A DNA stretch of 64,000 nt. Origin: an uncultured Thermoanaerobaculia bacterium (lineage in GTDB: Bacteria; Acidobacteriota; Thermoanaerobaculia; Gp7-AA8). The first letter of the stretch is position 1. Each line of letters begins with the position of its first letter. The translations under genes were made by a program, and so were the position numbers. Below are positions 2,697 through 28,327 of this stretch, piece by piece. The DNA is taken from the NCBI GenBank assembly GCA_964558905.1, contig CAZLGP010000055.1, positions 10,650 to 74,649 of the forward strand, in the 5' to 3' direction. The notes below the pieces were generated by a model. The model was not told the origin of the DNA. It did not search any database and saw only the letters and a list, made by a program, of their open reading frames with translations.

Positions 2697-5264
2697 ATGA
2701 AGCACATCGCGACCGTCCTCTTTCTGATTTGCATTTCAGTGCCCGCTGTCCGCGCCCAGGAGGCAACGCCGCGGCCGACGTATCGGGCCGTGCGCGCCGC
2801 GCAGGCGCCGGTGATCGACGGCGATCTCTCCGATGCCGTCTGGCAGAGCGCACCCGAGGCCACCGGCTTCACGCAGCGCGATCCGAACGAGGGCCAGCCC
2901 GCCACGCAGCAGACGCGGATCAAAGTTGCGTACACCGACGAGGCGATCTACTTCGGCGCGGTGATGGAGGACGACGGCAAGGTCACGCCGCTCCTTGCCC
3001 GCCGCGACAGTGACCTCAACAACGGGGACTACATCCGCATCAGCATCGACTCGCAGCACGACCGTCTGAATGGCGCGGCGTTCGTCGTGAATGCCTCGAA
3101 CGTTCAGATGGACATGATTCTCTACAACGACATCTACGACGACATCAGCTGGGATGCGGTGTGGGACTCGGCGACGAAGATCACGGAGAAGGGCTGGGTC
3201 GCGGAGGTGCGGATTCCGCTGTCGCAGTTGCGGTTCCCGGACAGGCAGGTCCACACGTGGGGCCTCAACGTCAGCCGCTGGCAGGCACGCCTGCGGGAGA
3301 GCACGCGACTCGTGCACACTCCGAAGACGGAGTCGGGGTTCGTGTCGCGCTTCGCCGATCTCGAGGGCATCGAAGGGATCAAACCGAGGCGCGCGTTCGA
3401 GCTCATGCCGTACGGAGTCGCCCGCTCGGACCTCTACAGCCGCGCGAACAACCCGTTCATCCCTGCCTCCGAGCATCGCGTCGACGCGGGCGTCGACCTC
3501 AAGTACGGCCTCACGTCGACGCTCACGCTCACCGGCACGATCAACCCTGATTTCGGTCAGGTCGAGGTCGATCCCGCGGTCCTCAATCTCTCGCAGTTCG
3601 AGACCTCGTTCCCGGAGAAGCGCCCGTTCTTCACCGAGGGTGCGAGCGTCTTCCGCTTCGGCAATGGCCCCGCGAATTCGCGGTGGGGCTTCAACATGTG
3701 GTTTCCGACCTTCTTCTACTCGCGCCGCATCGGCCGTGCGCCGCAGGGCTTCATCGACGCGGACCACGTCGACACTCCCGGCGAGACGACGATCCTCGGC
3801 GCCGCGAAGATCACCGGCAAGGTCGGCAAGGGCTGGACGGTCGGCTTTCTCGACGCGCTCACGGACAAGGAAGAAGGATGGTGGCGGGTTGGCGATGACG
3901 TCGGGAAACAGACCGTCGAGCCGATGACGAACTACCTCGTCGCCCGAGCCACGAAGGAGTACGGGAAGGACTCGCGCGCGGGATTCATGTTCACGTCCGT
4001 GAACCGGAAGCTGAGTGACAACCTTGAGGGGTCTCTGCGCGAAAGCGCGTACTTTGGCGGAGTCGATGGCTATTCGCTCTTCAAGGACAAGGCCTGGATC
4101 CTCGAGTGGCTCGCTGGCGGCTCCCTCGTCCAGGGCTCGGAGGATGCGATTGCCTCGACCCAGCTGAGCGGCGCGCGCTACTTCCACCGTCCCGACGCCG
4201 ATCACCTCGAGTACGACCCGACGCGCACATCGCTCTCCGGCTGGATGGGGCGGGTCATGCTCGCCAAGCAGCAGGGGAAGTGGCGGCCCAACATCCAGGT
4301 CCAGATGCTCTCCCCCGGCCTCGAGATCAACGACCTCGGATTTCTCCCGCGCACCGACGCGGTCTCGACCCATGCCGTGCTGCACTACCTGAACACCGAT
4401 CAGACGAAGTACACGCGCGAGATCAGCGCGTGGGTCGGCAAGTATCAGAACTGGAACTTCGACAAGGACCTGACCGCGAATGGCGTGTCGTCGAACATCT
4501 ACGTGCAGCTCAAGAACTACTGGTCGGTCTACATGTGGGGCGGTGGCCAGGTCGACCGCATCGATGACCGCATCACCCGAGGCGGTCCGGCGATGTTGTA
4601 TCGCGGGCACCGCTACGTGGGCGGCGGCTTCGGCAGCGACTCGCGGAAGAAGTTCAGTGCCTCCATCGAGACCGAAAGCGTCGTCGACGGCTTCGACGGC
4701 ACGTTCCGGATGTATTGGACCTCGTTGACCTACCGGCCGACGCCGGCCATCCGCATCTCCCTGACCCCGTCGTTCCGGCGACTGCACGAAGTCGCCCAGT
4801 ATGTGACGCAGGTCGCCGATCCTTCCTACGAGGCGACCTATGGGAAGCGGTACATTTTTGCCACGCTCGATCAGCGGACCCTGGACATCGGTCTCCGGAC
4901 GGAGTGGACGATGAACGCGCGCCTTTCCGCGCAGCTCTACCTGCAGCCGTTCGTCGCCAGCGGCGATTACAGCGGCTTCAAGTACCTCACGCGTGCTCGT
5001 GACGACGAGTTCACGCCGATCGAGGGCGTCCGTGAGACGGAGGAGGCGGGCAATCCCGACTTCAACTTCCGCAGCGTGCGCGGGAGCGCGGTCGTGCGCT
5101 GGGAGTTCCGTCCCGGATCGGCGATGTATGTGGTGTGGAGCGAGAACCGAGCCGACGTCGCGCCGTACGGCGACTTCCGGGTCCGCCGCGACTTCGGCGC
5201 GCTGCCCGACGCGCCGTCACAGGACGTGTTCCTGGTGAAGTTCTCCTACTGGCTGCCGATCTAG
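2697..5264 (+). CDS. secreted ~850-aa protein, DUF5916 / CBM9-like hydrolase family (tentative)
   Basis: Signal peptide MKHIATVLFLICISVPAVRA. Size and N-terminal carbohydrate-binding-like region recalled from DUF5916 proteins. Family assignment is from memory only. Confidence 0.4.
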   Translation: MKHIATVLFLICISVPAVRAQEATPRPTYRAVRAAQAPVIDGDLSDAVWQSAPEATGFTQRDPNEGQPATQQTRIKVAYTDEAIYFGAVMEDDGKVTPLLARRDSDLNNGDYIRISIDSQHDRLNGAAFVVNASNVQMDMILYNDIYDDISWDAVWDSATKITEKGWVAEVRIPLSQLRFPDRQVHTWGLNVSRWQARLRESTRLVHTPKTESGFVSRFADLEGIEGIKPRRAFELMPYGVARSDLYSRANNPFIPASEHRVDAGVDLKYGLTSTLTLTGTINPDFGQVEVDPAVLNLSQFETSFPEKRPFFTEGASVFRFGNGPANSRWGFNMWFPTFFYSRRIGRAPQGFIDADHVDTPGETTILGAAKITGKVGKGWTVGFLDALTDKEEGWWRVGDDVGKQTVEPMTNYLVARATKEYGKDSRAGFMFTSVNRKLSDNLEGSLRESAYFGGVDGYSLFKDKAWILEWLAGGSLVQGSEDAIASTQLSGARYFHRPDADHLEYDPTRTSLSGWMGRVMLAKQQGKWRPNIQVQMLSPGLEINDLGFLPRTDAVSTHAVLHYLNTDQTKYTREISAWVGKYQNWNFDKDLTANGVSSNIYVQLKNYWSVYMWGGGQVDRIDDRITRGGPAMLYRGHRYVGGGFGSDSRKKFSASIETESVVDGFDGTFRMYWTSLTYRPTPAIRISLTPSFRRLHEVAQYVTQVADPSYEATYGKRYIFATLDQRTLDIGLRTEWTMNARLSAQLYLQPFVASGDYSGFKYLTRARDDEFTPIEGVRETEEAGNPDFNFRSVRGSAVVRWEFRPGSAMYVVWSENRADVAPYGDFRVRRDFGALPDAPSQDVFLVKFSYWLPI

Positions 5265-5392
5265 TTGACAGTTGGCAGTTGGCAGTCGGCAGTTGGCAGG
5301 AGCCCCCCGCCCAACTACCTGCCAACTACGGGGGCGGGAGGGTCTCCTGCCAACTGTCAACTGTCAACTGCCAACCGCCAACCTATAATCTC
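5265..5392. repeat. inverted repeat built from tandem CAGTTGGCAG-type units
   Basis: Left arm GTTGACAGTTGGCAGTTGGCAGTCGGCAGTTGGCAGG. Right arm CCTGCCAACTGTCAACTGTCAACTGCCAACCGCCAACC. GC-rich palindromic spacer between them. Confidence 0.75.
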
Positions 5393-5395
5393 CCC

Positions 5396-6082
5396 ATGAG
5401 CGACGACTTCGGCACTATCAGCGCCCGGCGCGGCGATCGTGCGAAAGAGATCGAGGTTCTGCGCAAGCATCGCGAATCGCTCGTGAAGATGCTCGAGGAC
5501 GTCGACGCGCAGCTCCGCGAGCTCGAGATTTTCGACACCCCCGGCGCAAGGCCGCTCGTGACGACGCCGGACTATGAAGAGCCGGGGGTGGCGCAGGCAG
5601 GCAGCGGTCTGCGCGTCCTTCTGATCATCGGCGCAGCCCTGCTCGCGCTGGTGCTCATCGCGTGGCTCATCTGGCGCGCGAGCTCCGATCGGCCTGCCGC
5701 GACGGGCACGGTTGCCGAGGAAACCGTCACGGACGCAACAACGCCCGCGACGATCACGGAAGCGCCTGAGATCGAGGCGCTCACCGTCACGCCTTCGTCG
5801 CGCGACTACGGGCTCGTTCGGAAGGGTACGCGCGTGACGCGGCAGTACGAGGTTGCGAACAACACCGAGGAGCCGATCTCCATCACTGTGGCCCGCTCAG
5901 CCTGCCGCTGCCTCTACTACGAGCACGCGCCGGTCATCCCACCGATGGCGAAGGACTCCGTGACGGTGACGGTCGACGGCGCGAAGGCGAAAGCGGGGAC
6001 GCTGCGCGAGTCAATCCGCGTGACGGCGAAATCCGACCCATCCGTTGGAACATCGTTCGACGTAATCGCAACCGTCCGGTGA
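5396..6082 (+). CDS. membrane-anchored protein with DUF1573-like C-terminal domain (tentative)
   Basis: Internal ATG at 5396 chosen because the upstream part of ORF 5135..6082 lies in the repeat and overlaps the previous gene. Coiled-coil N-terminus, one transmembrane helix, C-terminal SACRCLYYEHAPVIPP resembling the DUF1573 SCGCT motif. Confidence 0.4.
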   Translation: MSDDFGTISARRGDRAKEIEVLRKHRESLVKMLEDVDAQLRELEIFDTPGARPLVTTPDYEEPGVAQAGSGLRVLLIIGAALLALVLIAWLIWRASSDRPAATGTVAEETVTDATTPATITEAPEIEALTVTPSSRDYGLVRKGTRVTRQYEVANNTEEPISITVARSACRCLYYEHAPVIPPMAKDSVTVTVDGAKAKAGTLRESIRVTAKSDPSVGTSFDVIATVR

Positions 6083-6120
6083 CATTCGGCGGAACACGGT
6101 TACCGAACGGCCGTGTTCTA

Positions 6121-7404
6121 ATGCGCGCCGTGAAGCGACCCCTCGGGTTTTTACTCGTATTCCTCGTGTGCTCAACAGTTTCCGGGCAGGACGCACCGCT
6201 GACACTCGAGCGGGCGGTGACCCTAGCCCTGGAGCGGAACGAGCGCGCCGCGATCGCCGATACGACGGTCGAGGCCGCCGAGGCGCGCGTGAGCCGCGCC
6301 CGCACCGCGTTCTTCCCCCGCGTCGATATCCTCGGCAACTGGCGCACCGACTATCCGGATCCCACCGACCGCACCCTCTCGACCTCCGCCCTCCTCACCC
6401 AGCCGATCTTCGATGCGCGCGTGTTCCCGTTTTTCCGCCAGGCGCGCTATCAGCGCGACGCCGCTCGTTTCGGCGCCGACGAGAGCAAACGGCTCCTTGG
6501 ATTCGACGCGGCGGTGGTATTCCTCAACACGCTCAGCTTCGAGCAGGTCGAGCTTGCCGCCGGGCGCCGCCGCGATTTCGCGCAGAGGAACCTCGAAGAT
6601 GTCCGCGCACGTTTCGAGGCCGGACTCGTCAGCTCGAACGACGTGACCCGCGCGGAGCTCGAGCTCGCGACCGCCGTGCGTGGCGTCGCCGAGGCGGCGG
6701 GCAACGTCCAGGCGGCGCGCGTCGATCTCGAGAATCTTCTGAAGACCGACATCGACGGACCTCTTGCGCGCCCCACGGCTCTCCTCGAAGCGGCCGCCAC
6801 GCCACCGGCGACGGACGTCCCGACCGCCCAGCAGCGTCGTGGAGACATCGCCGCGGAGCGGGCGAGCGTCGAGGCATTGCGTGCGTTCGCCGACGAGCCG
6901 CGCGCGCGCTTCTTCCCTTCCGTCGGGCTGAGCGCCCAGACGCGCAACATCAACGACGGTCCGATCACCTCGCGCGAGCAGGACGGCTTCGTCGGCCTCA
7001 CGTTCGCGTGGCCGGTTCTCGACGCCGGCGTGCGCGGCGCGGAGCGGCGCGAGCGCGAGGCGCTCGTGCGCGGCGCCGAGCTGGAGCTCGAGGCGTCGCT
7101 CCGCGGCGTCGAGCGGGAGCTCGCCAGCGCCGCGGTGCGGTTGAGCACCGAACATGCTGCGCTTCGCGAAGCGACGGCGGCCGTCCGCGCCGCGCGCAAA
7201 AACGCGGAAGAGACGACGATCCTCTATCGCGAGGGCCTCGCGAGCGCACTCGAGCTCGCCGACGCAACGCAGCAACTCTTCGAGGCCGAAGTGGCGGAGG
7301 CGACGGCCACGTATCGCATGGCCCTCGCGTACCTGTCGTTACGCGAGGCAAGCGGTGATGGCCCCGCCGGCGTTGCAGGCGCCGCGGGCGCTGGTGAAAG
7401 GTAG
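6121..7404 (+). CDS. TolC-family outer membrane efflux protein
   Basis: Signal peptide MRAVKRPLGFLLVFLVCSTVSG. Two TolC-like repeats rich in Leu/Ala/Arg. First gene of a TolC-MFP-RND operon. Confidence 0.8.
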   Translation: MRAVKRPLGFLLVFLVCSTVSGQDAPLTLERAVTLALERNERAAIADTTVEAAEARVSRARTAFFPRVDILGNWRTDYPDPTDRTLSTSALLTQPIFDARVFPFFRQARYQRDAARFGADESKRLLGFDAAVVFLNTLSFEQVELAAGRRRDFAQRNLEDVRARFEAGLVSSNDVTRAELELATAVRGVAEAAGNVQAARVDLENLLKTDIDGPLARPTALLEAAATPPATDVPTAQQRRGDIAAERASVEALRAFADEPRARFFPSVGLSAQTRNINDGPITSREQDGFVGLTFAWPVLDAGVRGAERREREALVRGAELELEASLRGVERELASAAVRLSTEHAALREATAAVRAARKNAEETTILYREGLASALELADATQQLFEAEVAEATATYRMALAYLSLREASGDGPAGVAGAAGAGER

Positions 7405-7432
7405 AAGAGAAAAGGTGAAAGAGAAAAACATC

Positions 7433-8566
7433 ATGCGCAGCGCGAAGCGGTCCCCCGTCTCCACTTTTCTCTTTTCCCTTTTCTCTTTGACCTTCGTGTC
7501 GTTCGTGTCTCTGACCTTCGTGTCCTGCTCCAAGGGCGAAGCCGAGGCAAGGGGCGGCCCCGGCAGCCGGAAGAGCATGGAGTTCCCGGTCGAGGTGAAG
7601 CCGGTCGAGTCGCGGCGTGTCGAGTACACCGTGACCGCCGTCGGCTCTCTCGACGCGTTCGAGCGTGTCGCTGTCACGGCGCGGGTCGCGGGCGCCGTCG
7701 AGCGCGTCAACTTCCGCGAGGGCCAGCTGATCAATCCGGGGCAGGCGCTCGTGGAGATCGAGCCGGAGCGGTACCGCCTCGCCGTCGCCGCCGCCGAGGC
7801 CACGCTGGAGAAGGCGGGCGCGGCGCAGGGCGAGGCGCAGGCAGGCTACTCGCGGCGTCAGGCCGCGAGCGAGAAGAACCCGGGACTGATTCGCGGCGAA
7901 GAGATCGAGACCTGGCGGACGAGAGTCCAGAGCACCGCGGCCGAGGTGTCGCAGGCGCAGGCGGCGCTCGCGCAGGCAAAGCTCAATCTGCGCGACGCCT
8001 TCGTGCGCGCGCCGGTGGCGGGGATCATCCAGACCCGCACGGTCGAGACGGGGCAGTACGTTCCGGTCGGGACCGTGCTCGCGACGCTCATGCGCCGGGA
8101 TCCGCTGCTGCTGCGTTTCCAGGTTCCGGAGCAGGACGCGCTGCCGCTGCGCACGGGCATGATCGTCCGGTTCAACGTCGCCGAAGGGGAGACGCAGCAC
8201 GAGGCGCGCGTCACGCACGTTGCGGCCGCCGCCAGCCAGGCCTCGCGCATGGTCGATGTCACCGCGAACGTGCTCAACGCGAACCGTCCCGATCTGCGGC
8301 CCGGCGCCTTCGCCCGCGTCACCGTCCCGATCGCATCCTCGCGCGAGGCCCCGGTCATCCCGCAGACCGCCATCAGACCGAGTGAGAAAGGTTTCCTCGC
8401 CTACACAGTGGAAGGTGGCGTGGCGCGCCAGCGCATCCTTACATTGGGGATGCGCACGGCCGACGGACAGGTGGAAGTGAAACAGGGGCTCACGCCCGGG
8501 GAAACGCTCGTGATTCGCGGCGCGGAAGCGCTGCGGGATGGCGCGAAGGTGAAGGTCACGCAGTAG
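7433..8566 (+). CDS. efflux RND periplasmic adaptor (membrane fusion protein, HlyD family)
   Basis: ATG at 7433 preceded by AAAGGTGAAAGAG. Lipoprotein-like signal peptide ending VSCSKG. Coiled-coil and beta-barrel MFP regions. Signal-peptide DNA carries a short tandem repeat CTTTGACCTTCGTGTC. Confidence 0.85.
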   Translation: MRSAKRSPVSTFLFSLFSLTFVSFVSLTFVSCSKGEAEARGGPGSRKSMEFPVEVKPVESRRVEYTVTAVGSLDAFERVAVTARVAGAVERVNFREGQLINPGQALVEIEPERYRLAVAAAEATLEKAGAAQGEAQAGYSRRQAASEKNPGLIRGEEIETWRTRVQSTAAEVSQAQAALAQAKLNLRDAFVRAPVAGIIQTRTVETGQYVPVGTVLATLMRRDPLLLRFQVPEQDALPLRTGMIVRFNVAEGETQHEARVTHVAAAASQASRMVDVTANVLNANRPDLRPGAFARVTVPIASSREAPVIPQTAIRPSEKGFLAYTVEGGVARQRILTLGMRTADGQVEVKQGLTPGETLVIRGAEALRDGAKVKVTQ

Positions 8567-8570: not shown

Positions 8571-8666
8571 GAGTCGTCTCAAAGTCTCAAAGTCTCAAAG
8601 TCTCAACGACCCCGCAACGAACCTCTTTGAGACTTTGCGACTTTGAGACTTTGAGACTCCGAGTCG
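8571..8666. repeat. inverted array of tandem AAAGTCTC octamers
   Basis: (GTCTCAAA)x3-4 followed by the inverted (TTTGAGAC)x3-4, between the MFP stop and the RND start. Confidence 0.8.
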
Positions 8667-12424: not shown

Positions 12425-12525
12425 GGCAGAATGTCAGGCGCGTTGCGCCGCTCGAAGCCCGTAACCCGCGAGTGCATCCGTGACGTGCCGTAAGGCGGAG
12501 CAACCAGCGCCGCCGGCCGTGCCGG
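12425..12525. repeat. ~95-bp dispersed GC-rich element (family sharing GAGCAACCAGCGCCGCCGGCCGTGCCGGCC)
   Basis: Aligns with the tandem copies at 53441-53531 and 53531-53622. Sits exactly between two gene 3' ends. Confidence 0.65.
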
Positions 12526-12526
12526 C

Positions 12527-12976: not shown

Positions 12977-13487
12977 CCCTCTCGTTGTCAGCGGCGCGAA
13001 GAAGCAGGTCGGCGTGACTCGAGGCTACGACCCGGCGTACCGGCGCATCGGCTATCCCAACGGAGACGTGCCGCGCGAGACCGGCGTCTGCACGGACGTG
13101 ATCATCCGCGCGTACCGCCATGCCGGCGTCGACCTGCAGGTCCTCGTGCATCAGGACATGAAGGGGAACTTCTCGAAGTATCCGAAGAACTGGGGCCTGC
13201 GCCGCCCCGACACGAACATCGATCACCGCCGCGTGCCAAATCTCGCGACGTTCTTCACGCGTCGCGGCGCAAAGATGCCCGTGACGCGCCGCGGCGCGGA
13301 CTACGAGCCCGGAGACATCGTGACCTGGAGGCTCTCCTCGGGCGTCCCGCACATTGGCCTGGTCTCGGACGTGCGCGTGCCGAACACGGATCGCTACCTC
13401 GTCGTGCACAACATCGGCGCGGGCACGCGGATCGAGGACGTGCTCTTCGCGTATGCGCTCACGGGGCACTACCGATGGCGGCGTTGA
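12894..13487 (+). CDS. DUF1287 domain-containing secreted protein
   Basis: Signal peptide MMSSRTRLLTAVIVVALALPLFA. Conserved GVCTDVIIRAYRHAGVDLQ and NIDHRRVPNL blocks recalled for DUF1287. Confidence 0.55.
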   Translation: MMSSRTRLLTAVIVVALALPLFADPRVIPLVVSGAKKQVGVTRGYDPAYRRIGYPNGDVPRETGVCTDVIIRAYRHAGVDLQVLVHQDMKGNFSKYPKNWGLRRPDTNIDHRRVPNLATFFTRRGAKMPVTRRGADYEPGDIVTWRLSSGVPHIGLVSDVRVPNTDRYLVVHNIGAGTRIEDVLFAYALTGHYRWRR

Positions 13488-14145
13488 GCTCCTCCGCCTT
13501 CTCCACGTTCGATAGGTGAGCCGCACCGGCGAGCTTCACCAGCCGCGCGTTCGGAATCGCGGCGGCCATGCGCTCGGCATCCGCCGGCGGTGTGATCGTG
13601 TCGTCCTCGCCGACGACGATGAGCGTCGGGACGTCGATGGATGGCAGCAGCGGCGATGAGTCGGGACGCTCGGCCATCGCCCGCAGTGAGGCAGTCACGA
13701 AGTCCGGCGACGCCGACATCATCACCTCGCGCACGAATTCACGCATGTCCTCCGGTGCGGAGGCGGTGAGCATCTTCGGCAGCATCGACTCGACGATCGG
13801 CGCGACGCCCTCGCGCTGCGCCTTTTCGATCATCTCGTGGCGTCCCTTGCGCGTTTCGTCCGTGTCCGCGGTCTCGCGCGTGTCGATGAGAATCAGCCCG
13901 GACACGCGCTCAGGGAAGAGGCGCATCGCCGCGAAGCAGATGTAGCCGCCCATCGACAACCCGGCGAAGGTCGCCTTCTCGATGCCGCGCGCATCGAGCT
14001 GATCGACCGCGAATCGCGCGTAATCCTCCATCGACTCCCGCGGAGGGAGGTCGGGCATCACGTGCTTGACACCTCGTATCGAAAGTTGCTTCGCGAAGAT
14101 GGCGGAGGTGAGAGGGAAGCCATGGAGCCAGAGGATGGTGTTCAT
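13459..14145 (-). CDS. alpha/beta-fold hydrolase
   Basis: 228 aa. HGFP oxyanion motif, GLSMGG nucleophile elbow, C-terminal Asp/His. Confidence 0.8.
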   Translation of the reverse strand: MNTILWLHGFPLTSAIFAKQLSIRGVKHVMPDLPPRESMEDYARFAVDQLDARGIEKATFAGLSMGGYICFAAMRLFPERVSGLILIDTRETADTDETRKGRHEMIEKAQREGVAPIVESMLPKMLTASAPEDMREFVREVMMSASPDFVTASLRAMAERPDSSPLLPSIDVPTLIVVGEDDTITPPADAERMAAAIPNARLVKLAGAAHLSNVEKAEELNAAIGSAP

Positions 14146-14335
14146 CGCGCCTCACAGGATAACGTGCCTCGGCCGGCACGGCCGGCAGCGCTGGCGTTCG
14201 CGAACGGCGCCAACGATGTCTCGAAAGGGACTGCCACGCTCGTCGGCTCCGGAGTCTCGACCGCAGAGATCAGTTCATCGTAAAAGCAGTTTGTGCAGCT
14301 GGATCAGGGGATCGCGTAAGATCCGTACCCAATCG

Positions 14336-15106
14336 GTGAGTGAATACCAGTACTACGAGTTTCAGGCCATCGATCGGCGGCTCACCGCCGTCGAGATGGC
14401 CGAGCTGCGAGCATTCTCGACTCGCGCGCGGATCACGTCGACTTGTTTCGTGAACGACTATCAGTGGGGTGGGTTCAAGGGAAACGAAGACACGTGGATG
14501 GACAAATACTTCGACGCGTTCCTCTACTTCGCGAACTGGGGAGCTCACACGCTCATGCTGCGGGTCCCCGCTCCCCTGCTCGATGCGAAGACAGCGGGGC
14601 CCTATTGCGTCGGTGAATCCGCCTCCGTCCGCGAGCGAAACGGAAAGACGATCCTCACGTTCATCTCCGAAGACGATGAACCCGATGACGACTGGGATGA
14701 TCAGACCGCCGCGCTTTCAGCATTGATTCCGATTCGAGCGCAATTGGCTCAGGGCGATCTCCGAAGTCTGTACATCGGCTGGCTTCATTGTGCGCAGGCT
14801 GGAGAGCTGGAACACGAGGACATCGAGCCACCGGTTCCGCCTGGGCTCGGAGATCTGGATGGATCCCTTGAGCGCCTGGTCGACTTTCTGCGAGTGGACA
14901 TCGATCTGCTCGAGGTCGCCGCGGCGGCCAGCCCCGCCAAACCCGCGCAGACTCTTACCCGCAAGGCGATTCAGCAGTGGATCGCCGAACACCCTCTCGC
15001 TGAGAAGGATGGCTATCTCGAGCGGTTCATTGCTGCGGAAGAGCCGGCACTCGCGACCGAGCTTCAGCGCCTCATCGCACATCGGAATGCCGCGACTACC
15101 CCATAG
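14336..15106 (+). CDS. hypothetical acidic protein (starts VSEYQYYEFQAIDRRL)
   Basis: GTG at 14336 chosen because upstream ORF residues are Arg-rich noise. GC3 pattern supports coding on this strand through 14700-15100. Confidence 0.5.
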   Translation: MSEYQYYEFQAIDRRLTAVEMAELRAFSTRARITSTCFVNDYQWGGFKGNEDTWMDKYFDAFLYFANWGAHTLMLRVPAPLLDAKTAGPYCVGESASVRERNGKTILTFISEDDEPDDDWDDQTAALSALIPIRAQLAQGDLRSLYIGWLHCAQAGELEHEDIEPPVPPGLGDLDGSLERLVDFLRVDIDLLEVAAAASPAKPAQTLTRKAIQQWIAEHPLAEKDGYLERFIAAEEPALATELQRLIAHRNAATTP

Positions 15107-15412
15107 CCGGTATGCCTCGATCCACTCCCAACCATGGGGAGGCGAATCCGGGAGCGGAAGATCGACAATGGGAATCGACTGCCGATGTCGTCCGCGCAAA
15201 CAGATGGCGATGATCTGGTCGGCGGGTGTGAGATCGACCCGCTCGACGATGACGGGCACGCCGAGAACAATCACCTCGAACGGGACAGCCACGTTGTCCT
15301 CGATCTTCGTGAACCAGCCGGTGACCTTCTCCGAGTCGTTGTAGCAGTCGACAGTTGCTTCCTCGATCATCTCCTCGAATCTGATCTTCGAAATGCGAGG
15401 AACGCGTGTCAT
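15100..15412 (-). CDS. small conserved protein translationally coupled to the helicase (MTRVPRISKIRFEEMIEEATVDCYNDSEKVTGW...HGWEWIEAYRLW); 3' end undefined
   Basis: ATG at 15412..15410 overlaps the helicase TGA (ATGA). Strong GC3>GC1>GC2 periodicity across 15101-15410. No in-frame stop until 14717, so the end given here is approximate. Confidence 0.4.
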
Positions 15413-18228
15413 GACGGTCCTCTCCGGCGTTGTGACAAACCCCGCAGAATGGCATCGAGAACCGAATCGAGCTCTTTCCCCACGTCCTCGGCGAGAAAGC
15501 GCAGTACCCAATAGCCGTTCTCCTGCAGCAGCCGATCCTTGTGACGGTCGCGGCGCCATGCGGCTGCATCCGACAGGTGCTGCGCGCCATCGATCTCGAT
15601 CGCGACACGCGCGTCGCCGCACAACAAGTCGACTTCCATCTCGCCTCGTGCGTCGAATGCGATCGGCAATCTGGCGTTCAGCTCGAAACATCCCCGAGTG
15701 TCATTCAACGTTTCCAATCGCCGATACAGGAACGCCTCGGTTGCGCTACGCGCCCGATCGGCGCCCACGGCCTCCGAGGAAGGTGATCGAGCCGCATGAA
15801 CGAACAGGTTCGCCAGCGGCGCATCGACTCCGTCGCGAATGAGTCGGCGCACGCTCGCGGAGTAGTCGTGTTTCCAGCCCGGATCGGATGGGAGAGGGAC
15901 GTCGGCCGGCCAGCCGGGAACCGCGCTTGCGGGAAGAACGATCGTATAGCCCACGGCTTCGTAGCCACGGCAACGACGGTCGAACATACGCGCCAGCATC
16001 GGCGCATTCAGATCCGCGTAGTCGTACACCCGGACCTCGCGCTTGCTGTCGTAGAGACGATGGAGCCTGCCGGCGTATTGAGCGATGGTGCCGCGCCACG
16101 AAACTGGAAGCGTGAGCATGAGCGTGTCCAGCCGCGCGTCGTCGAACCCTTCGCCGATGTATTTTCCTGTCGCCAGCAGCACGCGGTCCTCGTCGCGCGG
16201 AATCGCCGCCAATTCTTCGGCGACGGCCGCGCGCTGCTTCCGGCCCATTCCACCGCGAAGGACCAGCAGATGCCGAACCTTTCCTGAGAGATGACTCGCC
16301 AGGCGATCGAGGTGATCGTTGCGCTCGGTGAGGACGAGCGGCGAGCGGCCGGCACGGACCGCCTCGATGACGTCGTCGCAAATTTGCGTGTTCCGCAACT
16401 CATCGTCGATCAGCTCGCGGTAAAGGCTTTGGAACTCCAACCGCTGATCCGCGCTCGCCGAAACACGCGATTGGAAAGGCGTGGGGCGGACGAAGACGGT
16501 GTGCTCGAACGGCCGAACGGCAGCCTGGTCCCGCGCATTGACACGATGGCGGATCGGGCCGCACTGCATGAAGATGATCGGATGATGGCCGTCTTTCCGG
16601 GCAACGGTCGCCGACAACCCGGCGACGAACCGAGCTTTCGCACGTCGAGCCACCTGCTCGAAGCTGTACGCCGGCAGGTGATGACATTCGTCCACGATCA
16701 GATGGCCGTACTCGCCGACGCGATCGTCGACCACTCCCTTGCGCCCGAGGCTCTGAATGAGAGCAACGTCGAGCGTGCCGGTCGCTCGATCTCGCCCCCC
16801 GCCGATCTGACCGATCGCACCTGCTGGCAACTCGAGAAATGACGAGAGTCGCTCCATCCATTGGTCGAGCAGTTGCCGCCGGTGCACGAGGACCAGCGCA
16901 TTGACACCGCGCTGCGCGATGAGCCACGCGGCGATGACCGTCTTCCCGAACGCCGTCGTGGCGGACAGCACGCCGGTGTCGTGGGCCAGCATCGCCTCGG
17001 CCGCGATCCTCTGTTCCGGACGAAGCTCTCCTCGGAATGCGGCGCGGAGAGGCAATCCCGGGAAACGCTCATCGCGGACGACGGGAGTGACCTTCAGCTC
17101 CGAAAGCAGTTCCAGCAGCTCGCCGCGGCATCCGCGCGGCAGGCCGATGTGTTGCGGATGATCCTCGGCGCAGCCGATGATCCGCGGCTTGTCGTAGGTC
17201 GGCAGCCGCATCGCCTGCGCCTTGTAGAACTCGGGATTCTGAAACGCCGCGAGCCGGAGCAGGCGGTTTCGGAGCGGTGGAGGGAGTGACTCCTTGGCGA
17301 CATAGATCTCGTTCCCCAGCACCACCTCCAGCGTACGGGGCAAGCCCGGAATCGCCGGCTGTTTCCGATGGCGCGAGGGAGGGGCCGCCCATGGCTCATC
17401 CGCGTCATCCTCGGCCGCCGGGAAGCGCACGCCCACGATGCGCCCCCTTCGCTCGGCTTCGCGCACGATCGCTTCCACTCGGAACCGGCCGATCTTCTTG
17501 ACGTTAGACAGAAAGGCCCACTGATCGGGATGCGGCATCAACTCGTCGTCGACGAAAACGCTGTTCCCTCGATCGCGAGCCTGCTTCTGCAACGGCAACG
17601 CGATCAGATTGCCGAACCCGCCGTTGGGCAGCGTGTCCTGATTCGGAAAGAAGCGGTCGTACGAATCGAATCCCGCTTCGGGACGACGCTCCATCGTCTC
17701 TGTGAGAATGGACGACCCGAGCCTGCGCGCCAGTGCGGCCGGGATGGCCTCGTCGAAGAAGAGCCACACATGGCCGCCCTCGCCGGAACGCGAGCGCTCG
17801 AAGGCAGCGGGCAGCTCCAGCCGGCGGCACGTCTCGACGAACGCGCTCGCGTCCTCGCGCCAGCCCGCCTTGTCGAAGTCGACGGCCAGAAAGAAGCACG
17901 ACTCGTCGCGGAGCATCGCATACACGCCCGCGACGAACGGCTGGCCACCGTCGTCGCGTCCCGACAAGTGCCAGCGAATCACGTCATCGCTCACCGCCAG
18001 AAAGCGTTGGTGTGAACAGTCCGCGCATCGAATCCGCGGCTTCTCGCAGATCCCTCGCAACCACTCGTTGGCACAGGCCGGCGCGTACCCCGACTTCCCC
18101 GTCTTCCGGCTCTCGAATCGACGCGCGTAGACGTCTTCGCGGCCTCGGAAGAGAGAGCGGAACAGAGCGATCTTCGCCTCGGATGGGGACTGGAGATGGA
18201 CTGTGGGTTCTGCTCGCTCCTGCGACAT
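15409..18228 (-). CDS. fusion of an AEP primase-polymerase, an SF2 DEAD/DEAH helicase and a DUF559/Vsr-like endonuclease
   Basis: N-terminus has a Cys4 cluster (CANEW...CEKPRIRCADCSHQ) and AEP motifs LAVDFD and SRSGEGGHVWLFF. Helicase motifs TTAFGKTVIA, LIVDECHH, LSATVAR. C-terminal RVAIEIDGAQH...WVLRF matches DUF559. Resembles proteins named TOTE conflict system primase domain protein, recalled from memory. Confidence 0.85.
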   Translation of the reverse strand: MSQERAEPTVHLQSPSEAKIALFRSLFRGREDVYARRFESRKTGKSGYAPACANEWLRGICEKPRIRCADCSHQRFLAVSDDVIRWHLSGRDDGGQPFVAGVYAMLRDESCFFLAVDFDKAGWREDASAFVETCRRLELPAAFERSRSGEGGHVWLFFDEAIPAALARRLGSSILTETMERRPEAGFDSYDRFFPNQDTLPNGGFGNLIALPLQKQARDRGNSVFVDDELMPHPDQWAFLSNVKKIGRFRVEAIVREAERRGRIVGVRFPAAEDDADEPWAAPPSRHRKQPAIPGLPRTLEVVLGNEIYVAKESLPPPLRNRLLRLAAFQNPEFYKAQAMRLPTYDKPRIIGCAEDHPQHIGLPRGCRGELLELLSELKVTPVVRDERFPGLPLRAAFRGELRPEQRIAAEAMLAHDTGVLSATTAFGKTVIAAWLIAQRGVNALVLVHRRQLLDQWMERLSSFLELPAGAIGQIGGGRDRATGTLDVALIQSLGRKGVVDDRVGEYGHLIVDECHHLPAYSFEQVARRAKARFVAGLSATVARKDGHHPIIFMQCGPIRHRVNARDQAAVRPFEHTVFVRPTPFQSRVSASADQRLEFQSLYRELIDDELRNTQICDDVIEAVRAGRSPLVLTERNDHLDRLASHLSGKVRHLLVLRGGMGRKQRAAVAEELAAIPRDEDRVLLATGKYIGEGFDDARLDTLMLTLPVSWRGTIAQYAGRLHRLYDSKREVRVYDYADLNAPMLARMFDRRCRGYEAVGYTIVLPASAVPGWPADVPLPSDPGWKHDYSASVRRLIRDGVDAPLANLFVHAARSPSSEAVGADRARSATEAFLYRRLETLNDTRGCFELNARLPIAFDARGEMEVDLLCGDARVAIEIDGAQHLSDAAAWRRDRHKDRLLQENGYWVLRFLAEDVGKELDSVLDAILRGLSQRRRGPS

Positions 18229-18391
18229 GGCTGATCGATCTCACCATAAGCGATTTTCCGTCAGGCCGGCGCCGCGGGCCGGCGCCGCGGCCCACTAGTG
18301 TCCTGTCACGGCTAAGAACGTCGTCGGTGTGATCCACCCACTCCGCGTCTGGTGCAATCAGACGCGCTCGCCGTTCAGTCGGTGAACGCGA

Positions 18392-18971
18392 TCACTTCGG
18401 CAGTCTGTCGAGGAGATCTCTCTCCGCGAGGCTGAGCTCGCGCTCGACGGCGGGGTTCTCTTCGATCAGCGTTTGAGCGTCCGCGAGATCGCGCAGTCTC
18501 TTCGAGCGACGCCGCTCGGGATCGCTTCCGGCGCGGAGCTTCTCGTGCAGGAGGTCAATGACTCGAATCACGCGAAGGGGCACGTCGTCGATGACGATCT
18601 CGTCGGCGACGGAGACCGCGGGTGCGAGCAGCGGATCGTCTGTGAATTGGACCGGTGTGCCGTCAGCGGCCAACCAGTTCTCCGAATGCATGAAAACGCC
18701 GTCGATCCGGAACCCTGCCGCGATGAGGGCATCCCGCGGAATGTCGCCGCGTGAAACGACGGCGACATCGATATCGAGCGTGGTGCGCTTCCTGCTGGTG
18801 CACCTGGACAGCCAGTCCTCCGATGATCGCGTAGGGCACCTGCGCGTCACGAAGAACGCGGCACAGCGCCAGAAGAGCGGGTCGTTTGCTCTCTTCCATT
18901 TCGCCCCTCAACCAGTGCCACTGCCGATCCAGCAGAAATCCTGCTGCGAGACCAGAGCTCATGACGATCAT
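18392..18971 (-). pseudogene. nucleotidyltransferase-fold (minimal NTase) gene with a frameshift
   Basis: Frame A (from 18971) gives ...PYAIIGGLAVQVH. Frame B (to 18392) gives TSRKRTTLDIDVAVVSRGD. Together they make the GG...H-G-x-R-x-T-x-DID NTase motif, only if one base is added or removed near 18795-18805. Confidence 0.5.
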
Positions 18972-19247
18972 TCTACGCGGTGCCGCCGTTTCTCACGGCG
19001 GCACCCATTCGTCGTGGATTCTGAGGCGGTCCATGGCTTCCACCCCGCGTAGAAGAACGGCTTCCCTCGATCAAGCTCGACCTGCTGGTCGCTGATTCTG
19101 TCGTCGTCGAGATCAAGGCGGTATCAACGATCGAGGCCGTCCACGAAGTACAGCTTCTCACCTACATGAAACTCGGTGGCTGGAAACTCGCCTACTCCTC
19201 AACTTCAACGTCCCTTTTCTGAAGGACGGCATCCGCCGCCGTGTCCT
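18961..19247 (+). pseudogene. GxxExxY (PD-(D/E)xK_3) family gene remnant with several frameshifts
   Basis: RLPSIKLDLLVADSVVVEIKAVSTIEAVHEVQLLTYMKLGGWKLAYS, then +1 frame LLNFNVPFLKDGIRRRVL* matches the family C-terminus. The N-terminal part (ILRGAAVSHGG) is in a third frame and is cut by a stop at 19022. Confidence 0.45.
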
Positions 19248-20370
19248 CTGACTCCGTCCCACTCTGTGCTCTCTGTGGCTCTGTGGTGGTCCCCCGTCTG
19301 ACTGGTATTGCAACGAGCAATGCTCCGGCCGCCGCGTAAACGCCGACGGCTCCTGCGACGTCGAACACCGCCAGCGCAACGAGCGGACCGGCGGCAGCGC
19401 CGGCGTCGCGCGCGATTCCAAGGCGGGCCAGCGCCTGGACGCGCTCGAGACCGGCGTGTCTCGCCGCGGAAACGGGGATGGTCGTGCTCGTGACGGCGGC
19501 GCCGCAGCAGAGCAGAACGGCTCCGGCGATGGTGCTGTCGCAGGCGATGAAGAACGCGCCTGTCGCGGCGACCGTGAAGCCGGCGATGGTGGCGACGCCT
19601 CCGCCGAATCGATCGGCCGCGTGTCCGCTGATCGGCGCGAGCACGACCATGGCGATGCGCTTGAAGGCGAGCAGCATTCCCGCGCCGAGCACGGCGCCGC
19701 TCACGTCCGCCGATCTCGCGAGGAGCAGCCCGATGGTCGCCGGGAAGACCCCGTCCAGGACGAAGCCCGCGACGGCGCTGAGCCACTCGTGGCCCGTTGG
19801 CCTTGGCGACCTGCGCCGCGACGCAAGATGGATGCGCGCGTCAGGGAGCAGCGTCGCGATGGCGACGCCGAGGAGGGAGACGACGCCGAGCAGCCCGAGA
19901 GCCGGTCGCACGCCGAGCGCGGAGACGGCGATCGTGCCGGCCGTCAGCGACGACAACGGTCCGAGCTCGCGCAGCGACAGCGAAAGCCCGACGCGCTTTC
20001 CCGCGTCGTGACGTGACGCCGTGGCGTAGGCCAGCGCGGAAAGGGACAGACTCCCGAAGGCCGTGCCCCACGCGATGCGCGATGCGAGCAACGCCCACGC
20101 ACCGCTTCCAAATGCGAATCCCAGCGTCGAGAGTGCGCCGAGGGTCGCGGCGGCCATGGTGAAGCGCCGCAGCCCGGTGGCGGCGATGCGGGCGAGGACT
20201 GGATACAGGAAGAGGCGAACGACGCGATTCGCCGAGAGCAGCACGCCGACCCAGGCGAGGGAGACGCCGAAGGTCGACGCGTGCAACGGCAGGACCGCGT
20301 AAAGGAGCGAGTCGCCCAACAGCGCCAGCGCCAGGACGAGCGACGCCAGCACTGTCGGGCGACTGGTCAT
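19192..20370 (-). CDS. MFS transporter
   Basis: 392 aa, about twelve hydrophobic helices rich in Gly/Ala/Leu. Confidence 0.7.
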   Translation of the reverse strand: MTSRPTVLASLVLALALLGDSLLYAVLPLHASTFGVSLAWVGVLLSANRVVRLFLYPVLARIAATGLRRFTMAAATLGALSTLGFAFGSGAWALLASRIAWGTAFGSLSLSALAYATASRHDAGKRVGLSLSLRELGPLSSLTAGTIAVSALGVRPALGLLGVVSLLGVAIATLLPDARIHLASRRRSPRPTGHEWLSAVAGFVLDGVFPATIGLLLARSADVSGAVLGAGMLLAFKRIAMVVLAPISGHAADRFGGGVATIAGFTVAATGAFFIACDSTIAGAVLLCCGAAVTSTTIPVSAARHAGLERVQALARLGIARDAGAAAGPLVALAVFDVAGAVGVYAAAGALLVAIPVRRGTTTEPQRAQSGTESEDTAADAVLQKRDVEVEE

Positions 20371-24978: not shown

Positions 24979-25226
24979 GCGGTGACCTTGCACATCGCGT
25001 TGAGCAAACAGGTGATCTGGGCCTGTCGGCGCGACGCGGTGTGTCCATCGCCACACCTTTCCGCAGTTTTTCCACCCGAGCTGCGGAACGAACCAGCACA
25101 GGTCGGCACGGCCGGAGCGCTGGTTGCCCCGCCAACCGCCAACCGCCAGCCTCCAACCGAATGAGGCGGAGCAACCAGCGCGGCCCGTCGTGCCGGCTGG
25201 CCCGCTTCCTGCGCCAGCACCGCGTG

Positions 25227-25966: not shown

Positions 25967-26968
25967 TCATTTCACCGGAACGCGCATTGCGAACAGGAGC
26001 GTGCCGCCGAGCAGATACAGAACGAGGATGACGATCGACTCCCACGTCACGATGAATCGTCTCTGAGCCCGAATCGCGATCGCGATGATGACCACGGCCG
26101 TCATGGCGATGGCGATGATCGCGGAGACGCCGTGCGTGGGCGAGACATGCTGCAGAATCGGTCCCGCGGTGAAGAACACATCGTCGATCATCAGGATCGA
26201 CATGTTGAAGAGGTTGCTCCCGAGGATGTTGCCGAGGGCCAGGTCGACCGCCCCGATACGTACGGCCGCGAGCGACACGACCAGCTCCGGAACCGAGGTC
26301 GAGAAGGCGATGAACAGACTGCCGACGAATGTCTCGCCGAGACCAGAGAGGACAGCGAGCCTTGCCCCGACGGCCGGCAGAAACGAAGCTGCGCCGATGA
26401 TGACTACGGCGAGCGCGGCGTAGCGGAATCCTGCCTGCGCCAGCTTCATCGCCGGATATCGCAGAGGCACCGCGGCCGCCGTAGCGCTCTTCTCCTTCTC
26501 ACGCTCGAAGATCGTGTTGATGGCCAGGAGGTAGCCGATCATGAGCACGACGCTGGAGAGGCCGACCCACCCGGCAGCCGGGATGTCCCCGCCAGTGAGG
26601 AGCGGCAGCGCCACCGCGGACAGCAGAAGGATGGAGAACCCCGCGGCGACCGTGTGTCCCGGATCGGCGCGTGCTGCGACGGAGGGACCATTCGTGACGA
26701 AGTCCATGAGGGCGATGATCAGGAGGTTGAACATGCAGCTCCCGAGCACGTCGCCGACCGCGAGATCGGGCGCGTTGACGACGACGACGGAGCTGATGCC
26801 GGCCGCCAGCTCGGGGACGGAAGTCACCGAGGCCAAGAGGATGACGCCGATCCACGTCCGTCCCAGACCGCTCTTCTCGGCGATGACGTCCGCGTAGTAC
26901 GACAGTTTCGTGCCGGCGACGAGAATGATCGCGGCGAGAACGGCGAACTGCAGAATCGCGACCGTCAT
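25967..26968 (-). CDS. calcium/sodium antiporter (CaCA / YrbG family)
   Basis: Two internal alpha repeats (GTSVPELAAG and STSVPELVVS) and ten transmembrane segments. Confidence 0.8.
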   Translation of the reverse strand: MTVAILQFAVLAAIILVAGTKLSYYADVIAEKSGLGRTWIGVILLASVTSVPELAAGISSVVVVNAPDLAVGDVLGSCMFNLLIIALMDFVTNGPSVAARADPGHTVAAGFSILLLSAVALPLLTGGDIPAAGWVGLSSVVLMIGYLLAINTIFEREKEKSATAAAVPLRYPAMKLAQAGFRYAALAVVIIGAASFLPAVGARLAVLSGLGETFVGSLFIAFSTSVPELVVSLAAVRIGAVDLALGNILGSNLFNMSILMIDDVFFTAGPILQHVSPTHGVSAIIAIAMTAVVIIAIAIRAQRRFIVTWESIVILVLYLLGGTLLFAMRVPVK

Positions 26969-27104
26969 GGCCGCGTCTCCTCGGCAGCCGCGGCGCTCGG
27001 ACACCGGTCGTCACTCGCTTTGTGAAACGTGCTCATCGCCATCCAGGCTACTCCTGAAAGCCATGCTGCGAATGGTAGCGTGCGCGGGCGGTGCGTCGAG
27101 TCAC

Positions 27105-27160
27105 GCGGGTTCGTGATGCGAGGGGAGTGATTGTGATGAGTGATGAGCGATGAGTGATGA
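27105..27160. repeat. tandem (GTGATGAG)n array
   Basis: gtgatgcgaggggagtgattgtgatgagtgatgagcgatgagtgatgagtgatgagggg, direct copies only. Confidence 0.8.
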
Positions 27161-27218
27161 GTGATGAGGGGGCTGCCGGGTCCGGCATGGCCAGCGGCTT
27201 GCAGGCGGTCGCATTGCT

Positions 27219-27602
27219 TTGAGTTCAATCCAACTGACCCACGAGCTGCGGGCCTTCGTGAAGGATCGCTTCAGCTCCGCCGACCAGATCGGCATCGTCC
27301 TCCTGCTGCTTCAGGATTCGGGGCGGTCCTGGACGACGTCGGAGGTGGCGGACCGGTTGAAGATGGCCCCGGAGTCGACGGCCATGCGTCTGTTTCTGCT
27401 GGCGTCCGCGGGCCTGATCGCGTTCGAGCCCGCCGGCGTCCCCCGCTACCGGTATGCTGCCACGGATGAAGCGACCGACCGGCTGCTGCACGAGTTGGTG
27501 CCGGTGTTCGCCGGGAACACCGAAGAGGTTCTGCGGATCATCGCCGCGGCCGAGATCGATCCGATCCGTACGTTTGCGGATGCATTCAAGCTGAAGGGAT
27601 GA
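27219..27602 (+). CDS. hypothetical cytoplasmic protein, first gene of a three-gene coupled operon
   Basis: TTG start at 27219. Its stop overlaps the next start (ATGA at 27599). Confidence 0.4.
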   Translation: MSSIQLTHELRAFVKDRFSSADQIGIVLLLLQDSGRSWTTSEVADRLKMAPESTAMRLFLLASAGLIAFEPAGVPRYRYAATDEATDRLLHELVPVFAGNTEEVLRIIAAAEIDPIRTFADAFKLKG

Positions 27603-27871
27603 GAGGAGACATGCTCGCGATCATCGTCTACATCCTCTGTGCCGCGACGAGCGCGCTGTGCGCGGTGCTGCTGCTGCGAGGCTACTCGCAGTCGCGTGCG
27701 CGCCTGCTGTTCTGGAGCGGCCTCTGTTTCGCCGGGCTGGCATTGAACAACTTCTTTCTGATCGTCGACGTGCGCATCATCCCCACCATCGATCTGTCGT
27801 TCTGGCGCACCGTGCCGGCGCTGATCGGAGTGTCGCTTCTCGTCTACGGTCTGGTCTGGGAGACGCGATGA
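27599..27871 (+). CDS. small integral membrane protein (90 aa, three transmembrane segments)
   Basis: MRGDMLAIIVYILCAATSALCAVLLL... ATGA overlaps at both ends. Confidence 0.45.
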   Translation: MRGDMLAIIVYILCAATSALCAVLLLRGYSQSRARLLFWSGLCFAGLALNNFFLIVDVRIIPTIDLSFWRTVPALIGVSLLVYGLVWETR

Positions 27872-28119
27872 CCGAAGTCTCCTCCGGAATGCTGGTCGCG
27901 GGCTATGTCTTCGCAGCCCTATTCTTCGGCCGCTTCTGGGCGCAGAGCCGGGATCGGCTCTTCGCGATGTTCGCCGTGGCGTTCGGACTCCTGGCGATCC
28001 AGCGCCTGGCTCTATCGCTGAGCGCCGCACCGCTGGAGGATCGGACGATCTTCTATCTCCTCCGCCTGTTCGCCTTCGCCGTCATCGCCTTCGCCATCAT
28101 CGACAAGAACCGCCGCTGA
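27868..28119 (+). CDS. small integral membrane protein (83 aa)
   Basis: MTEVSSGMLVAGYVFAALFFGRFW... ATGA overlap with the previous gene. Confidence 0.45.
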   Translation: MTEVSSGMLVAGYVFAALFFGRFWAQSRDRLFAMFAVAFGLLAIQRLALSLSAAPLEDRTIFYLLRLFAFAVIAFAIIDKNRR

Positions 28120-28268: not shown

Positions 28269-28327
28269 CGTGACGGTGCCGCAAGGCAGAGCAACCAGCG
28301 CTGCGCAGTCTGCGCCAGAATGCGGGG

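Follow-up and report, generated by a model that had tools for sequence, protein, structure and literature searches.

A probable 378-bp deletion joins a CcbP-like small gene to a shadow open reading frame beside an intact AEP-helicase-DUF559 gene in an uncultured Thermoanaerobaculia bacterium

The region described here lies in a stretch of 64,000 nt (the whole of it called the window below) of contig CAZLGP010000055.1 from an uncultured Thermoanaerobaculia bacterium. It holds three real genes: a gene of a family that we call YYEF after its N-terminus (MSEYQYYEF..., about 380 aa in full), a small gene convergent with it that codes for a CcbP-like protein, and, upstream of the small gene on the same strand, a large gene coding for a fusion of an archaeo-eukaryotic primase (AEP) domain, a superfamily 2 (SF2) helicase and a DUF559 nuclease (Table 1). 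The three genes form a block shared with the contig L001, from a Thermoanaerobaculia metagenome-assembled genome (MAG; GCA_054316715.1) that encodes a 96%-identical YYEF protein. An earlier note, made from the sequence alone, had pointed out that the small open reading frame (ORF) starts in an ATGA overlap with the stop codon of the large gene and then continues, antisense, through the convergent gene. Both features are present: the overlap reads gtcATGAcac, with the small-gene ATG at 15412-15410, and the ORF has 231 sense codons before its first in-frame stop (TGA, 14719-14717), lying antisense to the + strand YYEF gene over 14717-15106. A Shine-Dalgarno-like GGAGAGG, identical in L001, is found 7 nt upstream of the small-gene start, and the arrangement suggests that translation of the small gene may be coupled to that of the large one. 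Rfam gave zero matches over 13000-19500.

Table 1. Features of the three-gene region, of its counterpart in L001 and of other parts of the window. Positions are those of the window unless preceded by L001.
Feature	Position	Strand	Basis
Three-gene block common with L001	14188..18267	.	blastn and L001 gene tables; 93-95% nt identity
Large gene, intact, 939 aa	15409..18228	-	ORF list, Pfam, NCBIfam, PADLOC, dN/dS
AEP-TOTE primase-polymerase domain, aa 19-253	17470..18174	-	PF22548; D116/D118, H152, D227
Cys4 putative zinc module, C52, C61, C68, C71	18016..18075	-	conservation in relatives
SF2 helicase core, aa ~401-745	15994..17028	-	GKT, DECH, SAT, QYaGRLHR; ResIII, DEAD, Helicase_C
DUF559 / Vsr-like PD-(D/E)xK nuclease domain (predicted), aa 864-931	15436..15639	-	PF04480, MTES_1575
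GGAGAGG, Shine-Dalgarno-like site for the small gene	15419..15425	-	inside the 3' end of the large gene
ATGA start/stop overlap, large and small gene	15409-15412	-	gtcATGAcac
Small ORF, 231 sense codons	15412 to 14717	-	first in-frame stop TGA 14719-14717
Conserved part of the small gene, aa 1-104, complete CcbP-like fold ending ...EWIEAYRLW	15101..15412	-	homologues, PF11535, AlphaFold
Read-through tail, 127 non-homologous codons and TGA	14717..15100	-	no homologue; dN/dS; open in L001
Deletion junction, 5-nt microhomology CCCAT	15100..15104	.	blastn breakpoints and direct sequence comparison
Truncated YYEF gene, GTG start, MSEYQYYEFQAIDRRLT..., 256 aa	14336..15106	+	alignment with longer homologues
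L001 YYEF gene, 382 codons	L001:9839-10987	+	L001 gene tables
L001 small gene, 116 codons	L001:10943-11293	-	L001 gene tables
L001 AEP gene, 939 codons	L001:11290-14109	-	L001 gene tables
Copies of the ~45-nt repeat	12482-12526, 14171-14194, 25164-25197, 28276-28301, 29347-29368, 36126-36151, 53421-53626		
C5 cytosine DNA methylase, near the low-GC stretch	41561-42841	-	
'Beta protein' gene	43919-44926	-	PF14350
HTH and Peptidase_M78 (ImmA/IrrE-like) gene	44919-46094	-	

The homology of the small product ends well before its stop codon. A search with the 231-aa product returned 104 homologues, which cover its first 26-52% (mostly 40-46%), and nearly all of those aligned stop 2 to 5 residues past a conserved ...EWIEAYRxW. 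A motif scan likewise placed the stop 2-15 codons past the Trp of YRxW in 58 of 58 relatives (mode 4), compared with 127 codons in the window. The usual length of the family, which the earlier note had proposed to look up, is therefore not around 230 aa, as it would be if the long overlap were real. The AlphaFold model of the conserved 104-106 residues (pLDDT 92.6) matches the Anabaena calcium-binding protein CcbP (Alr1010; PDB 3urg, 2p0p and 2k2v; PF11535) in fold, with a TM score of 0.76 and a probability of 1.0 against 3urg, and the last helix of this fold (residues 95-105) ends where homology ends. At the level of sequence the similarity is low: the profile of the small family matches CcbP chains weakly (E 0.006), identity to CcbP is 16-18%, and the window copy reaches 22.9 bits against PF11535 (cut-off 21.5), a borderline match limited to its N-terminal part, while the orthologue at locus L157 matches the entire profile. 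Calcium binding by the small protein is a candidate property. The protein also differs from CcbP in its genomic context, after an AEP-helicase gene or before a YYEF gene, and, in the window, in bearing a tail of 127 residues.

The convergent gene is itself incomplete, which the earlier note had missed. The YYEF protein has 4254 homologues, and most of those among the matches listed are 376-385 aa long, the best being 96% identical. The window copy has 256 aa and ends in ...HRNAATTP, where its relatives run on for about 126 residues, so that it is without residues 257-382 and the C-terminal helical domain. In a model of a full-length relative (pLDDT 85) the cut point falls in a low-confidence linker (residues 251-257), after which comes a C-terminal domain modelled with confidence as helical, one long helix spanning 263-309. 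Neither the missing segment nor a second fragment was found anywhere in the window. The YYEF protein matched no Pfam, NCBIfam, PADLOC or PHROGs family and had no significant sequence or fold match in the PDB.

L001 has complete versions of both convergent genes, with a 45-nt overlap between their 3' ends. The two contigs align in two segments (blastn), L001 9693-10614 with window 14188-15111 (94.7%) and L001 10981-14148 with window 15100-18267 (93.0%); beyond the block the sequences differ on both sides. According to the breakpoints, and to a 378-column gap in the pairwise alignment, the window is 378 bp shorter than L001. The junction was placed by the breakpoints together with direct sequence comparison; the MAFFT pair alignment misplaced the edges of the gap. 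In L001 the pentanucleotide CCCAT stands at both edges of the segment missing from the window (...CCCATCGCGGGTGGCG...), 378 bp apart, each copy within an imperfect 12-nt repeat, CCCAT[C/A]GC[G/C]GGT (CCCATCGCGGGT and CCCATAGCCGGT, 10 of 12 nt). With this segment the small gene lost its last 12 codons and its stop (...DRKTGTSQFRDE*), and the YYEF gene its last 126 codons. No promoter-like site or terminator was seen at the junction. Because of the lengths that prevail in both protein families, we take L001 as the ancestral state and the window as the derived, deleted one.

We consider that the lost stop of the small ORF is explained, with a probability of roughly 0.85, by this 378-bp deletion in the lineage of the window, together with a tail that represents a shadow ORF. 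The 378 bp between the two CCCAT copies would have been lost in a typical microhomology-mediated event (replication slippage or illegitimate recombination). The YYEF gene would then have been left to end at a fortuitous TAG, antisense to a Leu codon of the small gene (the TAG at 15104-15106 is the reverse complement of the CTA in YRLW), and the small ORF would read on into antisense YYEF sequence. A second case comes from L083, whose AEP protein is 85% identical to that of the window: only fragments of YYEF are left there (aa 162-173 and 352-379, L083:6300-6445), convergent on an intact small gene (ending YRLWVT*) beside an AEP gene that is also intact, which is an independent and larger deletion of the YYEF gene. 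In L163, with an AEP protein 84% identical, the AEP gene and a complete YYEF gene are directly convergent, the small gene being absent between them; L165 has its YYEF gene 2 kb upstream. The partners are thus gained and lost, whereas the AEP gene remains intact. The ratios of non-synonymous to synonymous substitution rates (dN/dS) relative to L001 are 0.11 for the AEP gene (939 codons; 0.10-0.13 for its three parts taken separately), 0.19 for the remaining 256 codons of the YYEF gene and 0.56 for the conserved head of the small gene.

The length of the read-through follows from the composition of the genome. The frames of the small ORF and of the antisense YYEF gene are codon-aligned, and a stop in the small ORF therefore needs a TTA, CTA or TCA sense codon in the YYEF gene. 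These codons are very rare in this 65% GC genome, which accounts for the long open antisense frame: together they make up 0.48% of codons, pooled over eight window genes, so that the probability of 127 open codons is about 0.54, and the window YYEF gene has a single one, the TCA at 14717. Codon-aligned antisense runs of 128-500 open codons are found in all eight genes (8/8). Once the normal stop was gone, the missing stop is not beyond chance. The strong codon-position GC periodicity noticed earlier is real (0.60/0.41/0.73 in the head, 0.65/0.44/0.77 in the tail), and that of the tail derives from the sense gene, with GC1 and GC3 mirrored, because the frames are codon-aligned. Shadow ORFs of GC-rich genomes occupy this same antisense frame and are closed only by TTA, CTA and TCA codons; the difference here is that the deletion fused one of them in frame to a real gene, which provides a real start codon and a ribosome-binding site.

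Some points weigh against a deletion followed by read-through. The dN/dS values of the small-gene head (23 changes) and of the tail (11 changes) rest on few substitutions. Moreover, the junction is known from one assembly, without an independent copy, so that there is a small chance that the deletion was made by the assembler or belongs to a minority strain. The 378-bp gap would in that case be an artefact of assembly or binning (a wrong join, or a minority variant taken as the consensus) in an L001-like organism with both genes complete. In line with this, the window apparently comes from a metagenome-assembled contig, MAGs make up all of its nearest relatives, and NCBI records a 100%-identical protein (P0225) on a contig of 84.6 kb. 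However, the repeat at the junction is perfect over 5 nt only, being imperfect (10 of 12 nt) beyond that, and collapse by an assembler is not expected because such a repeat is far shorter than assembler k-mers. Both flanks are collinear with L001 at 93-95% identity. Finally, the different and independent YYEF deletion in L083 indicates that such deletions do occur in this lineage. We thus regard the artefact as unlikely.

It is much less likely still that the 231-aa product comes from a true overlapping gene under selection, with a CcbP-like domain and a new C-terminal extension encoded antisense to YYEF, although the ORF is uninterrupted, is preceded by a Shine-Dalgarno-like site, is coupled through ATGA to the gene upstream, and shows a coding-like codon-position GC profile. 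That profile mirrors the sense gene, and the openness of the frame is expected by chance, as set out above. The tail is unique among 59 members of the small family, the other 58 stopping soon after YRxW, and it evolves as the antisense of YYEF: compared with L001 it shows 10 non-synonymous and 1 synonymous change in its own frame (omega 3.25), against an omega of 0.28 in the YYEF frame. In addition, L001 already has this antisense frame open, attached to no gene or start. We therefore interpret the tail as a shadow ORF that has come under a real start codon; its 127 residues are probably an unselected appendage, and the protein, if made, would consist of a CcbP-like domain and a junk tail. A miscalled gene, the other option raised by the earlier note, is at odds with the membership of both convergent genes in well-populated families. 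The same note had also suggested a stop lost through an indel or a sequencing error; the loss holds, and its cause is the 378-bp deletion relative to L001. A single-base change near 15090-15110 is scarcely credible, even though one G added to the G4 run right after the Trp codon (tggggtagt) would make a TAG, since 378 bp rather than 1 bp are missing, both sides of the junction align without a frameshift, the added base would also abolish the stop of the + strand gene, and the 126 codons lost from that gene are beyond the reach of any single-base change.

For annotation, the 231-aa protein should be treated neither as a new long form nor as an evolved overlapping gene, both convergent genes being damaged by the deletion. 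The case shows how a deletion in a GC-rich genome can join a real start codon to a shadow ORF and thereby mimic an overlapping gene. The small ORF without a stop is otherwise largely ordinary, the outcome of a deletion and of the usual scarcity of antisense stops in such a genome.

The large gene next to it is intact and under purifying selection. Its AEP domain covers positions 2-229 of the 230 of PF22548 (327.6 bits, cut-off 27), its helicase part (aa 401-544) matches ResIII (67.9 bits) and DEAD (37.9 bits) above their cut-offs, with a weak Helicase_C match below it (18.3 bits), and its C-terminus matches PF04480 (45 bits, cut-off 20.6) and MTES_1575 (28 bits). The profile searches proposed by the earlier note were thus positive for AEP as well as for DUF559. 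Its reading of the motifs was also correct, because in an alignment of 69 full-length relatives, taken from genome loci of many phyla, the residues concerned are conserved at 95% or more. These are the four Cys of the Cys4 module (C52, C61, C68 and C71, each), the AEP residues D116 and D118 (LAVDFD), H152 (GGHVWLFF) and D227 (FVDDE), matched by inspection to motifs I (DxD), II (His) and III (Asp), the helicase motifs GKT, DECH, SAT and QYaGRLHR, and the nuclease motif E.D...E.DG.QH (E865, D867, E878, D880, Q883, H884). Altogether, 32% of the positions of the large protein reach this level. On the basis of the profile and of the conserved core, the DUF559 domain is predicted to be a Vsr-like nuclease, and the Cys4 module probably binds a metal. 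All NCBIfam matches are below threshold (CRISPR-associated PrimPol, XPB, RadD and a DUF559 protein); a score of 51 with the XPB equivalog, whose cut-off is 610, means that the large protein is not an XPB orthologue. PHROGs gave generic helicase families (phrog_16, DNA helicase, 135.7 bits) and weak primase families. The likeness to TOTE primase-domain proteins stated in the earlier note is borne out by a 95%-identical protein (P0226) that NCBI names 'TOTE conflict system archaeo-eukaryotic primase domain-containing protein'. The large protein is a typical member of this already named and widespread family.

A scan of one genome per species (185,579 species genomes) found at least 594 stretches encoding relatives of the large protein, with a patchy distribution. 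The best 80 relatives are 61-84% identical over their full length and come from more than 10 phyla (Acidobacteriota, Planctomycetota, Verrucomicrobiota, Myxococcota, Proteobacteria, Lentisphaerota, Riflebacteria, Saccharimonadales, Chloroflexota and others), and such identity between phyla suggests recent transfer. Among 2.9 million viral contigs there were 9 loci of the large protein, only one of them with the DUF559 part. Clustering of the flanking ORFs at 80 related loci revealed no conserved neighbour within 4 kb; the commonest flanking family is YYEF, at 6 of 81 loci including L001 (thus 5 of the 80 scanned), and the small gene was found next to a relative of the large gene once, weakly. 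The window neighbours of the block are a serine hydrolase, an ACT-domain protein, a DUF1287 protein, an alpha/beta hydrolase, an AbiEii-like fragment, an MFS transporter and a flavoprotein. Toxin-antitoxin and nuclease genes occur around the block in the window and in its relatives (AbiEii-like, PIN/RHH, Uma2, PIN/PSK). Beside the block lies a variable cargo spot (window 18268-19313, L001:14149-15829), which holds a 152-aa AbiEii-like nucleotidyltransferase fragment in the window (18392-18850, - strand) and RHH, PIN and Uma2 genes in L001, synteny returning at the MFS, flavoprotein and sigma-70 genes.

TOTE stands for TPR, OB, TBP and Effector (Aravind, Iyer and Burroughs 2022, as quoted in PMC12458937). 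The earlier note called the architecture conflict-system-like. With the PF22548 match and all catalytic residues, the large protein corresponds to the effector-type AEP gene. The TPR-OB(CSD) and TBP partners named in that quotation are not adjacent, however: Pfam scans of the neighbours over roughly 3.6 kb on each side gave no TPR or CSD match, no TBP-fold gene was found beside the large gene here, and neither partner is adjacent at the 80 related loci. The AEP domain is, moreover, fused to an SF2 helicase and a DUF559 nuclease in what is mostly a stand-alone gene. We conclude that the AEP-helicase-DUF559 architecture is a stand-alone, horizontally mobile accessory gene outside the canonical TOTE operon as that quotation defines it; its conflict-system status can only be suggested. 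In the window it represents an intact copy of a very widely transferred enzyme that has persisted while its neighbours decayed.

Other known systems resemble parts of the protein. The AEP domain is homologous to the CRISPR-associated PrimPol: aa 16-329 match the PADLOC model PDLC01465 ('PrimPol, cas-associated') with 312.7 bits, and the score against NF040561 (PrimPol_Msp) is 79.9 bits, far below the cut-off of 200. The helicase and nuclease fusion distinguishes the large protein from that family. No cas gene was present among the genes scanned around the locus, and Tandem Repeats Finder, run on the window, yielded no repeat array of long period (CRISPR-like). The presence in a single chain of an SF2 helicase and a C-terminal PD-(D/E)xK nuclease of Vsr type is shared with the YprA proteins of ARMADA or Druantia type and with Hhe. 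The latter is another helicase-Vsr/DUF559 defence fusion. In ARMADA, YprA helicases with a C-terminal Vsr nuclease protect against phage (PMC12458937). In contrast to these proteins, the helicase of the window is ResIII/XPB-like and is preceded by an AEP domain not found in those systems, and none of the PADLOC models of ARMADA-, Druantia- or Hhe-type systems matches it.

The large protein most likely acts alone as a nucleic-acid-targeting conflict (defence) enzyme, a role towards which we lean only slightly. It is favoured because the helicase-Vsr fusions of ARMADA-type systems have a similar layout, because the gene, patchily distributed over phyla and rare in viral contigs, lies in variable spots near PIN/RHH, Uma2, AbiEii-like and PSK/PIN genes, and because its AEP domain is named from conflict systems. 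The SF2 motor would recognise foreign or aberrant DNA, load onto it and unwind it, and the Vsr-like domain would introduce a nick; on the strand exposed in this way, priming or extension would be carried out by the AEP domain. The CcbP-like and YYEF proteins would serve as dispensable accessory or regulatory partners. Against a defence role, the match in PADLOC is limited to the cas-associated PrimPol model, with no defined defence system, and no experimental work on the AEP-helicase-DUF559 family was found, literature access being limited. The very high conservation is also unusual for defence genes and would fit a repair enzyme as well.

A function in DNA repair or damage tolerance, in which an XPB-like helicase and a Vsr-like nicking nuclease would be combined with repriming or gap filling by a PrimPol, is accordingly a serious rival, given this conservation and the lack of partners, although we hold it to be rather improbable. 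The helicase is nearest to the XPB/Rad25 and RadD models, under their cut-offs, and the gene is usually single; both the XPB-Bax1 helicase-nuclease pair and the AEP polymerase domain of LigD act in repair. The patchy distribution of the gene, its position at synteny breaks near toxin-antitoxin genes and transposases, and the naming of its domain family from conflict systems argue in the opposite direction. It is quite unlikely that the block serves to replicate a mobile element, the primase-helicase being its initiator: fusions of AEP and helicase domains are typical of plasmid and virus replication proteins and PHROGs gave weak primase and helicase matches, but the helicase is of SF2, replicon helicases being usually of SF3 or DnaB type, the gene is rare in the viral contigs, and no other mobile-element genes are conserved around it at the 80 loci. 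The block as a mobile element was also dropped as a reading, since neither terminal direct or inverted repeats nor an integrase were found at its ends, nor a tRNA in the window.

The partners of the large gene were surveyed from the side of the small protein, by searching metagenome contigs with its alignment and keeping 80 loci. At 27 of the 72 loci with enough upstream sequence, the small gene is immediately preceded on its own strand by an AEP-helicase gene. These helicases are usually about 52-57% identical to the window protein, with a similarity that usually ends near residue 761, most of them being a shorter form that does not carry the DUF559 domain. Downstream of the small gene, a YYEF gene is found on the same strand at 18 of the 48 loci with enough sequence, and 14 loci have a gene of about 120 aa (MGK..FHLS.AHVQMARELGMNPRKLGKL...), usually between the small gene and YYEF. 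The cassette is complete in L157:3383-7788, for example, with an AEP-helicase (3383-5941), the small gene (5953-6309), a 122-aa ORF (6270-6638) and YYEF (6631-7788). A same-strand cassette is also present in L125, L130, L089, L099, L112, L147, L148 and L160, in the order AEP-SF2 helicase (about 760-850 aa, without DUF559), CcbP-like protein, ~120-aa protein and ~380-aa YYEF protein. The last two match no Pfam family. At loci without an AEP gene, the genes upstream of the small gene are only unrelated housekeeping and toxin-antitoxin genes, with no other conserved one. Tentatively, the CcbP-like and YYEF proteins, often with the ~120-aa protein between them, might constitute an undescribed accessory (sensor or regulator) module that repeatedly accompanies AEP-SF2 helicase effectors where the quoted TOTE definition has TPR-OB and TBP components; no description of a CcbP-like/YYEF/AEP-helicase module was found, within the limits of literature access. 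If so, the window would hold an example of this module in decay, attached to the DUF559-bearing form of the effector. The linkage is a modest lead for researchers working on defence systems.

The window has several further features. A dispersed, GC-rich, REP-like intergenic repeat of about 45 nt (...GACGTGCCGTAAGGCGGAGCAACCAGCG.CGCCGGCC...) occurs at the places given in Table 1; a partial copy lies at the left edge of the three-gene block, related copies are found in L001, and the occurrence at 53421-53626 is part of a 110-nt unit repeated 1.9 times. A stretch of low GC content (41561-46094; 0.56-0.57 at 44-46 kb) holds the 'Beta protein' and Peptidase_M78 genes of Table 1, with the methylase gene nearby, and looks like a second small foreign or defence island. 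The AT skew swings from +0.20 to -0.21 between adjacent 1-kb windows within 26001-28000. Tandem Repeats Finder also located heptamer arrays at 52252-52474 (AGTCCTG x6, GGGTGCG x10.6 and AGCACTC x6, within 220 bp), with others at 5263-5299, 27125-27168 and 50298-50334, and an 85-nt unit present twice in tandem at 61470-61639 (87% identity). Finally, two inverted octamer arrays, GTCTCAAA x3.9 at 8576-8606 and CTTTGAGA x4.2 at 8625-8658, lie 18 bp apart and could represent a long hairpin or a protein-binding site.

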